From assembly GCA_964252035.1 (NCBI GenBank), contig OZ176207.1: a stretch of 64,000 nt of DNA. The stretch is one strand, 5' to 3'. Each line of letters begins with the position of its first letter. The stretch's first letter is position 1. Source of the DNA: Podarcis erhardii. Taxonomy: Eukaryota. A program made the translations under genes and the position numbers. Below the pieces are notes generated by a model. It saw only the letters and a list, made by a program, of their open reading frames with translations. It was not told the DNA's origin and made no database searches. Below, piece by piece: positions 55,867 to 58,662 of this stretch.

Positions 55867-55986
55867 TTACATTTGCCTGCTAGAGGCAACTTAACTTCAT
55901 TTAATTTAATGCATTTATAAATGTAGATCATTGCTGTATGTTGTTTGAGGATAAAAGGGAATTAATATTTACTATGGCAAACCTGT

Positions 55987-56752
55987 TGTCAGGGGTTCAG
56001 GGAGAGAGACGCAGAGTGAGGGGGAAGGATTCCAGACTGACGAGGAAGAGGATGACAATGACCCAAGATTGTCCATGAGTCCGTCCAGTGAATCGGAGGA
56101 CTCCCAAAAGGGAGCCCCTCTGGTCAAGCCAAGGGGAGCTAGAGGGGGAAGCAGTCAGGAGCAGGGAAAGGAAGGGGGAACCCCCAGTGGGAGTTGGAGA
56201 GCGAGACCGGCTGCTCCGCTGGAACGGAGTGAGGGGGGAGGAGTGACCAGTGTGTCAGAAGGAGCAGAACAGGAAGCAGAGAGGGGAAGGAGATCAGGGC
56301 AAAACGTGCTGCCGGAAGGGGAGGAAAGTAGTATTGAGGGCAATGTAACTGTCGAAAGGAAGGTCAAGAGCAACGTAAGCGCGCCAAGTTCAAAATGGGA
56401 GGCGCGCGGAAATGAAGAGAGTCCTGGGGAGGAGCCTGGTCCCAAAGCCCGAAGGAGGGGGGAGGAGGTGGCAGAGGATTCAGCCTCGGGAGAGTCCCGA
56501 AGGGAGAGAACACAGGGGGGCAGAAAGACCCTGCGGAAAAGGAAAGAGAGAAAGAGGTGGACCAGTACAAGCCTCTTAAACTGGTGTCGAGGGGGGAGCG
56601 AGTCAGAGGGGACTTCAGCGGTCTAAGGGTAACAGACGTAGGGTCACGGACCTCGGATCTAAAGCTACTGATGTTCTTGAATAAAAGCTTTTGTACATAA
56701 GCTGGAGTGGACTTTGGTCTCTTGTGAGCTGGGGCCACGGGTGACTCTGACA
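55987..56752 (+). mobile_element. Solo LTR, 766 bp (probably Ty3/Gypsy)
   Basis: Perfect inverted termini TGTCAG..CTGACA; perfect 5-bp TSD CCTGT (55982-55986, 56753-56757); AATAAA at 56680-56685. Confidence 0.9.
55988..56626 (+). CDS. Stop-free reading frame filling the U3 of the solo LTR (212 codons; first ATG at 56075); acidic, Ser/Gly/Glu-rich with a basic C-terminal cluster
   Basis: The track ORF 56069-56626 extends 27 codons upstream without a stop (VRGSGRETQSEGEGFQTDEEEDDNDPR) to the LTR edge; the C-terminus contains RKRKERKRW. No homolog recognised; translation not shown. Confidence 0.4.
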   Translation, partial: VRGSGRETQSEGEGFQTDEEEDDNDPRLSMSPSSESEDSQKGAPLVKPRGARGGSSQEQGKEGGTPSGSWRARPAAPLERSEGGGVTSVSEGAEQEAERGRRSGQNVLPEGEESSIEGNVTVERKVKSNVSAPSSKWEARGNEESPGEEPGPKARRRGEEVAEDSASGESRRERTQGGRKTLRKRKERKRWTSTSLLNWCRGGSESEGTSAV

Positions 56753-58662
56753 CCTGTCATTATTTAAAGTAATAAGTCATATTTAAAACACAATCTTATA
56801 GCCAGCTGTAGAGCCATAGGTTTCAGCAAAAGCCCTGCGGTGCCAGGAGAAAGCCAGATATGCTGCCACCATGACAGATACACCAGCAGAACTGCTCAGA
56901 TACACTGGGAAGAGTCATATGGGAAGAGATACATATGGGAAGAGTCATGGTTGTGTCATGGGCAACACATGGTGTGTCTGTTTGTGAGAGGAAGCAGACC
57001 ATATTCTATACTCCTTCAGTTCACTGCCATATATGGTGCAACTTCGCAGCAATCATTTCTCCATCCACAGTGTAACTTTCCATCAGAATGGACACAAAGC
57101 ACTTCCTCTCATGTTTGTTCACCATGCTTCTCATGCCGTGAGTGTTCCCACACTTGGGCAAGCTTGAGAAGCCCCAGCCTACTTCCCAACAGCAGGAGGG
57201 AGCAAGCTTTCTCCATCTTTACCTGGCAGTCTTTGCCTTCTCTACAGCTCCAAGTACCTCAGCAGGACCAAACTCAAAAGCCCTTCCCACCCTTTCCAGC
57301 TCCAGACTTGGAACTGGGGAAGGAAACAGGACATTGCCCCTGGCCGCATGTTTTGTCTTGGTTGCTGGGCCATCAAAAGCACTGCTGTTATCATCGGCAC
57401 ATGTTGATGCCTATGGATTTCTGCCAAGCTACAGCCTACATAGCTTGGACTGCTCACTTAGCACACACACTCTCTCACCATTTTGGTGTGCTCAGTCACA
57501 TGGAGGACAGTAGGTGTTCCGCAACACTCCCAAACATCCACGCGGTCCCATAGTATCATAAGAACTTTTGTTCCTAGACTGACATGACTCTGAATGCTTC
57601 CAGGACCTTTGCTAACCCCATGAACATTCTGACATTTTAATAAATAAATAGAGAGCAGAGACAGCAGTGGGTTTCCCTGGCTCTCCATTTATTTATTCCA
57701 CACCGACCAACATAAGGTTTACTCGCAAGTAAAGCGAGCGCAAGTTGTGGGCTTACTGTACTTACTGAACTATGGAAACTACTAATTGTTCATGAACTTA
57801 GTATGTATAAAGTACACTGCTACAATATATCATTTTTATGGGGTGCAAACCACTTTGGGTAGAGTAATTAGGAAGGTTATTTATAAAATGAAATTAAGTA
57901 AATAGGACCCACCAGAGGTACGTGGCAATTCGTCTCCAGTTTTGGGTAAACAGATTTATCTGCTGAATTCATCAGCTTGATTTTGCCTATTTCTAGCATT
58001 TTCATCTCTATTTATACTTCCTGTGCAATTTCTTATATTTGAAATATTGACTTGGTGAAACAAACTTCCAGATGGGTGTGAAATTCTGGACAGGCCAAGG
58101 CCTGGCAGTGAAACTCTGCCCTCAAGTGGAACCATTAAAAAAGACTTGGCTAAATGAACAGTCCATATGACAATTTTCTTTTCTTAATGTCCCTTACCCA
58201 TCCAGAGACAGCAGACTTTGAGAAGTTTAAGCAATACGTGGGAAAGTGACAACTTTGTAATATAGTACATCTCTACCAAGGTCATTGAGGATGTCCGATA
58301 ACAAACAAACAATAATCACCAAGGTTTCTGAACCAAAAATAAAGAAATCCCCCCCTGCTCACATTTGCTCTTCTTTCTGCTTTTATACTATGAATTTATG
58401 TCTCCTACAACAGAAAAAAACCTATTGTTCAAACTGTTGGTGTTCTCTGTGCAGTGTATATGAACTACAGATTAAGACTTTAGTATTGTGGAAAGTAATT
58501 TTATCTGTAATACTTTCAATTTATTTATATATGTTCTATAATCCAGTTTTCAGTTTGGCAAACAGTATTATTTTTTACTGCCTTTTCCCTTTAAAAATGC
58601 CATTCACTATGTATTCTGCTATCAAGAGCATCGTTCCAGTGCTGCTACTATTTTTTGTGCTT

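Follow-up and report, generated by a model that had tools for sequence, protein, structure and literature searches.

The window, a 64,000-nucleotide stretch of Podarcis erhardii contig OZ176207.1, contains a solo LTR of a young Ty3/Gypsy chromovirus. Solo LTRs arise through LTR-LTR recombination. The copy belongs to family A, cluster 1, represents the 212-codon variant of that cluster, and has two differences from the LTR of a full-length copy, L031. Its features are listed below.

55982..55986, plus strand: left copy of the 5-bp target-site duplication (TSD), CCTGT, from the sequence
55987..56752, plus strand: solo LTR, TGTCAG..CTGACA, 766 bp; young Ty3/Gypsy chromovirus, family A, cluster 1
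55987..56604, plus strand: U3, putative extent set by the self-primer position; pol-coding throughout in full-length parents
55988..56626, plus strand: 212-codon open frame, the final 212 residues of a 1,541-codon pol frame, from the frame and the parents
56075..56077, plus strand: sole in-frame ATG (giving 183 aa), upstream of the putative transcription start and not conserved in sister subfamilies
56534..56584, plus strand: basic patch RKRKERKRW followed by LLNW, candidate NLS or tether, from the sequence
56576..56580, plus strand: TATA-like TTAAA, putative promoter, 29 nt 5' of the self-primer and overlapping the L-N codons
56605..56615, plus strand: 11-nt self-primer AGAGGGGACTT, complementary to the PBS of full-length copies; putative start of R
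56624..56626, plus strand: pol stop codon TAA, 19 nt past the self-primer start
56680..56685, plus strand: AATAAA polyadenylation signal, from the sequence
56753..56757, plus strand: right copy of the TSD, CCTGT, from the sequence

The first-pass annotation of this DNA had reported LTR edges flanked by CCTGT duplications, and a stop-free sense frame running from 55988 to a stop ending at 56626, ahead of AATAAA. We confirmed both, with the duplications at 55982–86 and 56753–57 and a frame of 212 codons closed by TAA at 56624–26. The sense codons occupy 55988–56623, and the remaining forward frames carry 10 and 5 stops over the same stretch. The product is acidic in its N-terminal part, rich in Ser, Gly and Glu in the middle, and basic at its end. 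Comparison with composition-matched shuffles, proposed alongside the frame, showed that 212 codons are rarely reached by chance: when the 640-nt U3 plus stop was shuffled 10,000 times by each method, at least that many open codons, in any forward frame, appeared 3 times with mononucleotide and 55 times with dinucleotide shuffling. For shuffles of the whole LTR, the counts were 5 (mononucleotide) and 28 (dinucleotide), each per 10,000. T accounts for 75 of the 640 nt of U3 plus stop, and 150 open codons were attained by 1,075 of 10,000 dinucleotide shuffles; T-poverty aids the openness of the frame but is insufficient to explain it. On the minus strand, U3 also carries a 155-codon open frame (56155–56622), which is probably a shadow of the sense frame.

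A DNA search of the same genome with the LTR returned 2,763 candidates; the 40 that were scored are 99–100% identical, and many are paired ~5.7 kb apart. Full-length family A copies are 6.49 kb long with 5-bp TSDs, and their only long frames are gag (377 codons) and pol (1,541 codons, stop to stop), with no env. The pol frame is unbroken in five of eight full-length copies, and in all eight the last pol segment stops at the same LTR stop. In these parents pol runs PR-RT-RH-IN-SH3, followed by a weak chromodomain, then a linker of 136 aa and lastly the U3 tail, and the peptide across the PPT/LTR junction reads ...GGMD on the upstream side and VRGSG on the LTR side. Hence the suggestion that the parent element reads an internal ORF through the PPT into the 3' LTR was correct, and that ORF is the C-terminal tail of pol that follows the chromodomain. 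In L031, the Pfam families are Ty3 capsid and CCHC for gag, while pol has protease, RT, RNase H, integrase and a Tf2-type SH3; the best PDB match of the parent is Ty3 Gag-Pol (E 2e-136). Its closest named proteins are from Podarcis muralis, and its nearest proteins come from vertebrate and fungal chromodomain elements. Two Podarcis proteins, P0002 and P0007, likewise end via read-through into U3. The gag and pol frames overlap, with GGGAAAC at L031:2081. Judged by these sequence features, the element is a Ty3/Gypsy with features of the Tf1/sushi type. In runs X1 and X2, contigs join across the L031 copy in its entirety (L031:232–6731), and the insertion therefore has an empty allele. Directly after the 5' LTR (L031:1004–1009) is GTAAGT, which resembles a splice donor and overlaps the PBS; subfamily 2b and family C have a different sequence there.

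Two related families also read through U3: family B, whose Pol is ~73–83% identical to that of family A, and family C, whose Pol is 56% identical. Family C (L108–L119) has a 396-bp LTR that lacks AATAAA, a 96-codon U3 frame with a similar basic end, and 1,040 junction copies dispersed along chromosome arms. The basic patch at 56534..56584 is identical to the family C stretch at 10 of 25 positions (pairwise E 0.005). Among 117 chromodomain-bearing relatives, the median length of the tail following the chromodomain is 12 aa; 14 tails exceed 100 aa, nine of them from Podarcis, and that of the long-tail element is ~350 aa. The family A chromodomain scores below the Pfam cut-off (E 0.014; 15.8 bits versus 25.1), and members of the long-tail clade score 15.8–16.8 bits or give no hit, as in family B; family C, at 38.2 bits, is over the cut-off. 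The family A segment aligns at the same place as that of family C, with the W of the family C YLVEW replaced, and by this alignment the family A chromodomain is degenerate but homologous. Family C has two acidic FxGF motifs after its canonical chromodomain, and an FxGF, which belongs to the linker upstream of the LTR, comes after the chromodomain in all three families (A, B and C) as well as in 9 of 9 Podarcis tails. A TND-interacting motif has been described as FxGF with an acidic linker and an obligate helix (PMC9987994). The conserved linker FxGF resembles TND-binding motifs, and this resemblance extends to the non-telomeric family C. Neither the U3 peptide nor the 374-aa tail matched any family in a Pfam search, and a search of the ESM Atlas gave no usable match. 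AlphaFold, given the chromodomain and tail with a 12-row alignment, returned no confident structure (mean pLDDT 38.6, with the chromodomain itself below 60).

We saw no tRNA-type PBS in the full-length copies; rather, the PBS matches the element's own LTR. The sequence AAGTCCCCTCT sits 2 bases past the 5' LTR and is complementary to LTR bases 56605–15. This self-primer/PBS pair covaries across families A, B and C and L117, and in predicted RNA folds the self-primer pairs with the PBS in both the MFE and centroid structures (z -1.98). Tf1/sushi elements are defined by self-priming, and their self-primer is the RNA 5' end, according to the published descriptions (bioRxiv 2022.12.06.519325; PMC6317226). 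We infer from this that R starts at ~56605. The pol stop lies 18–22 nt past the self-primer in 5 of 5 subfamilies checked, including families B and C. In the 3' LTR, the pol frame takes up the whole of U3.

3' LTRs were sampled by the PPT/LTR junction pattern alone, as the first 90 among the matches listed, of 648. Samples drawn with protein queries were left out of frame counts because they favour intact frames. We also left out six of the 90 junction copies before clustering, as they lack a TATA anchor, and 29 copies without an intact U3 frame from the codon alignment. The U3 frame is open to its usual end in 61 of the 90 copies, and in 32 of 33 from young clusters 1 and 2. For nine clusters that are up to 39% apart, dN/dS in U3 was 0.21–0.44 in all 36 pairs; in the same clusters, it was 0.08–0.11 for the IN core and 0.25–0.46 for the linker. 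A maximum-likelihood fit gave omega 0.38 (kappa 3.05), with lnL 71.6 better than for omega=1. Under a null that preserves the mutational spectrum, 146 of 500 U3 differences were expected to be synonymous, versus 243 observed (P ≤ 0.0052 in 7 of 7 pairs). The U3 tail contains 58 invariant residues, in motif-like blocks. Between natural subfamily representatives, U3 indels are of 3, 18 or net 63 nt, and indels of 1–2 nt occur past the stop in 6 of 10 comparisons; the exception is a 1-nt deletion at the stop codon itself, between clusters 8 and 9. Thus, of the two copy-based comparisons put forward in the first-pass annotation, dN/dS indicates constraint, and indels preserve the frame between subfamilies; by contrast, 20 of 25 private U3 indels are non-triplet. 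Private substitutions, meant as a neutral control, are a weak one (pN/pS 0.35), probably because the copies derive from different source lineages. Nor are changes between paired 5' and 3' LTRs a clean neutral control: 20 are synonymous and 32 non-synonymous, i.e. 38% versus ~29% expected. From the codon-level comparisons, we conclude that the U3 frame is under purifying selection at the protein level. The distance from chromodomain to LTR is in frame in 23 of 26 cluster-1 copies versus 16 of 53 copies from older clusters. G-runs just 5' of the LTR (L150–L239) contract often, and in different runs, disrupting read-through in most older copies; hence, most old copies cannot make the tail.

We consider it likely that the frame represents the last 212 pol codons of a Tf1/sushi-type chromovirus with putative self-priming, that it is under selection, and that it encodes a probably disordered, partner-binding integrase tail that is probably silent in a solo LTR. 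The first-pass annotation had further envisaged that a potential 183-aa nuclear protein, starting at the ATG at 56075, is carried by every solo LTR; on such a proposal, the LTR would act as an accessory gene of the nef or sag kind. Intact solo copies number in the hundreds, transcription could read through from a host promoter, and an equivalent ATG is found in clusters 1, 2, 6, 8, 9, 10, 11 and 12. However, this ATG lies in U3, ~530 nt upstream of the putative transcription start, and has T at -3. It is replaced by ACA, ACG or ATA in clusters 4, 5 and 7, and an in-frame Met is present in just 1 of 30 subfamily-2b LTRs and missing from 29. Moreover, constraint on the first 55 alignment columns, a stretch that includes the codons preceding the ATG, matches that on the remainder. 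Since the ATG precedes the putative start and is not conserved, a solo-LTR protein is unlikely and the frame is likely silent there; we regard the accessory-gene proposal as very improbable. We give slightly less credence still to an accidental origin, whereby U3 is T-poor and purine-rich for reasons of DNA or RNA (promoter, G-quadruplex) and pol simply runs on. The low T content, the ease with which dinucleotide shuffles reach 150 codons and the low AlphaFold confidence all fit such an accident, as does the overlap of TTAAA with the LLNW codons, which means that the "LLNW" motif is partly DNA-coded. An accident is nonetheless contradicted, at the level of sequence comparison, by the codon-position and indel tests: omega is 0.38, synonymous changes are in excess under the spectrum-preserving null, and U3 indels between subfamilies are triplet only while 1-nt indels are fixed directly past the stop. 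The position of the stop relative to R is, in addition, kept in families that are 56% identical in Pol.

HIV nef, MMTV sag and foamy-virus bel are separate accessory genes with their own starts, and their coding sequence overlaps the 3' U3. The lizard frame shares this overlap, but it is the end of pol and lacks a conserved start of its own. As a precedent, nef and sag are therefore not the best fit, and plant CRM chromoviruses are closer: their gag-pol ORF is described as extending into the 3' LTR (PMC3059260, PMC3605345). The entry of pol into the 3' LTR is thus already known from plants, and CRM group A resembles the lizard element in having a tail coded in the LTR. As that group is characterized in these sources, membership fails on priming (tRNA-Met in CRM, a putative self-primer in the lizard element), on the CR motif (which replaces the chromodomain in CRM, whereas a weak chromodomain still lies upstream of the lizard element's PPT), and on location (centromeric in CRM versus telomeric enrichment); the lizard frame also spans all of U3, with ~210 codons. 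With the Tf1/sushi group, as described, the element shares the PR-RT-RH-IN-chromodomain order, a CCHC gag, overlapping gag and pol frames, and a self-primer of 11 nt that has complementarity to the PBS and a nested duplex, with no tRNA-type PBS seen (bioRxiv 2022.12.06.519325, PMC6317226). It is set apart from that group by its ~350-aa tail, wholly coding U3 and degenerate chromodomain.

The long-tail clade is concentrated at chromosome ends. Of the long-tail junction hits, 21 of 60 fall within the terminal 0.5 Mb of contigs; the corresponding figure for family C, counted over the same territory, is 3 of 100 (P 7e-8). We surveyed the outermost 10 kb at each of the 40 ends of C1–C20 (400,000 bases). 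At least 300 bp of telomere repeat is present at 25 of the 40 ends, and the long-tail clade at 23 of those 25. The clade covers 166,261 of the terminal bases (42%) and family C covers 1,608 (0.4%), as compared with genome-wide shares of 0.5% and 0.4%, respectively, by rough estimates. Twenty LTR edges adjoin telomere repeat, and in seven truncated copies the repeat is confined to the side facing the tip, as breakage and putative healing would predict. The insertion phase is CTAAC or GTTAG at 15 of 15 junctions scored, and in 8 of 9 and 10 of 11 pattern hits. Two of the pattern hits were disregarded: L267, in mid-C17, is off phase, and L293 does not involve telomere repeat. The sequence preference seen in solo-LTR TSDs (n=44) predicts the CTAAC phase (6.1x; 1.3x averaged over the repeat). 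Telomeric copies occur in both orientations with different flanking repeat variants, and on a tree the telomeric 2b LTRs (11 rows) are intermixed with arm copies (29 rows; 6 changes versus a shuffled mean of 7.9), which argues that they are independent insertions. We count ~17 insertions of cluster 2/2b in repeats, versus fewer than one expected even if telomere sequence totalled 2 Mb, with estimated denominators.

The telomere bias is partial, since most copies, including those of 2b, are on arms, and the older clusters are the most end-enriched. Telomere-repeat insertions account for 6 of an estimated 66 copies in cluster 2 and 0 of an estimated 600 in cluster 1. The window's own cluster 1 is mostly dispersed, with 2 of 27 copies terminal and 0 of 6 A-type 5' telomere junctions; at telomere tips it is represented only by an older variant, at C1 and C14. 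Changes specific to cluster 1 at otherwise shared sites number four in U3 and three in the linker. [FY]xLxP is the TRF1/TRF2 docking motif, and inspection of the tails by eye revealed no conserved instance. Centromere targeting was rejected, as the enriched ends are TTAGGG arrays, although in acrocentric chromosomes one telomeric end may also be near a centromere.

Two further explanations concern the end bias. The first is that the tail is real but has a general job, such as nuclear import or RNA/capsid binding, and that telomere insertion is set by the chromodomain, linker or IN core; we put this at slightly below an even chance. In its favour, U3 tails are present in cluster 1 and in family C, neither of which shows clear insertion at telomeres, and the long-tail clade also differs from family C in its chromodomain (15.8–16.8 bits or no hit versus 38.2) and linker motifs. 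Weighing on the other side, 58 invariant residues in motif-like blocks are more than an NLS needs, and the part that the LTR encodes in plant CRM group A is described as a putative targeting domain (PMC3059260). The bias may be set by the U3 tail, by the altered chromodomain or by the linker, and that the U3 part itself is the telomere tether is a tentative proposal, to which we assign about a one-in-three likelihood. Alternatively, copies may accumulate at ends by retention or copying rather than targeting, because at ends insertions are tolerated, blocks are exchanged and few elements are lost. The end enrichment of the oldest clusters, the location of most 2b copies on arms, and regularly spaced, identical-scoring copies near the C7, C15 and C16 ends, which point to block duplication, would all be expected from retention. 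Yet family C, which is of similar abundance and also young, is nearly absent from the same terminal bases and terminal 0.5 Mb; on the tree, telomeric 2b LTRs intermingle with copies from the arms, and they lie in both orientations and have differing flanking repeats; and sequence preference accounts for the phase but gives only 1.3x averaged over the repeat. We consider retention improbable as the explanation.

If the frame is a selected integrase tail, Gag-Pol would be made by a -1 shift at GGGAAAC, and genomic RNA would start at the self-primer in the 5' R, such that U3 is transcribed from the 3' LTR only. Ribosomes would read the 3' U3 to the stop in R; U3 would then be promoter in the 5' copy and coding sequence in the 3' copy. 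The tail would stay on integrase, with the basic patch promoting nuclear import, and its short motifs may tether the intasome to chromatin, as do the integrase C-termini of Ty1 and Ty5 and, perhaps, the LTR-encoded CR motif of CRM. Solo LTRs would retain the frame only because they are young. To our knowledge, the targeting motifs of Ty1 and Ty5 are not LTR-encoded. In these yeast Ty1/copia elements, integration is reported to be directed by the integrase C-terminus, through short motifs and an NLS, Ty5 being sent to heterochromatin near telomeres via Sir4 (PMC7459421); the likeness is a functional analogy only, tethering in the lizard being a proposal. MoTeR/FoTeR, HeT-A/TART/TAHRE and Penelope-like Terminons are reported to insert into or at telomere repeats and to build up ends (PMC12857005, PMC12477314). 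These are non-LTR or Penelope-like elements, and FoTeR is described as having a fixed orientation and being confined to ends, whereas the lizard element has LTRs, uses an integrase and leaves a 5-bp TSD, and it is inserted in both orientations, with most copies on arms.

What is new here is the occupation of telomere-bearing ends by the long-tail clade, with independent insertions inside (TTAGGG)n. We found no report in the open-access literature of a fully coding U3 in a vertebrate element, or of an LTR retrotransposon inserting in vertebrate telomere repeats; Butler et al. 2001, Piskurek et al. 2009 (Anolis chromodomain Gypsy) and Repbase/Dfam may already note the read-through. The proposed dual role of U3, as promoter in one copy and as selected protein in the other copy, would couple LTR turnover to the evolution of integrase. 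At its most speculative, and in our estimate rather unlikely as a whole, the proposal is that in a vertebrate LTR clade a promoter-bearing U3 became an integrase tail of 210 residues. This tail would take the place of a decayed chromodomain and tether the intasome to telomeric chromatin; successive subfamilies would insert in (TTAGGG)n, be cut back and be recapped with telomere repeat, and the subtelomeres of these lizards would be the product. If the bias reflects targeting, the element offers a natural telomere tether and a model for vertebrate subtelomere formation; if the tail is the tether, it would be a telomeric counterpart of the plant centromeric CRM elements. Near-identical subfamilies differ in telomere use, and hence the determinant is mappable. 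For annotation, caution is warranted, as hundreds of solo LTRs bear a convincing but probably silent ORF.

Other structures were noted near the chromosome ends. Identical-scoring copies are spaced ~115–270 kb apart at C15:44.5–45.2 Mb, C7:0.16–0.90 Mb, C16:0.1–0.2 Mb and C13:56.0 Mb, and this arrangement suggests a large amplified subtelomeric block. At C13:55.868–55.882 Mb (L287, L296), ~300 kb from the end, an internal telomere tract with at least three elements inside is perhaps a former chromosome end. The start of C18 (1–3000; L256) is filled by a 51-bp tandem repeat of 68% GC.
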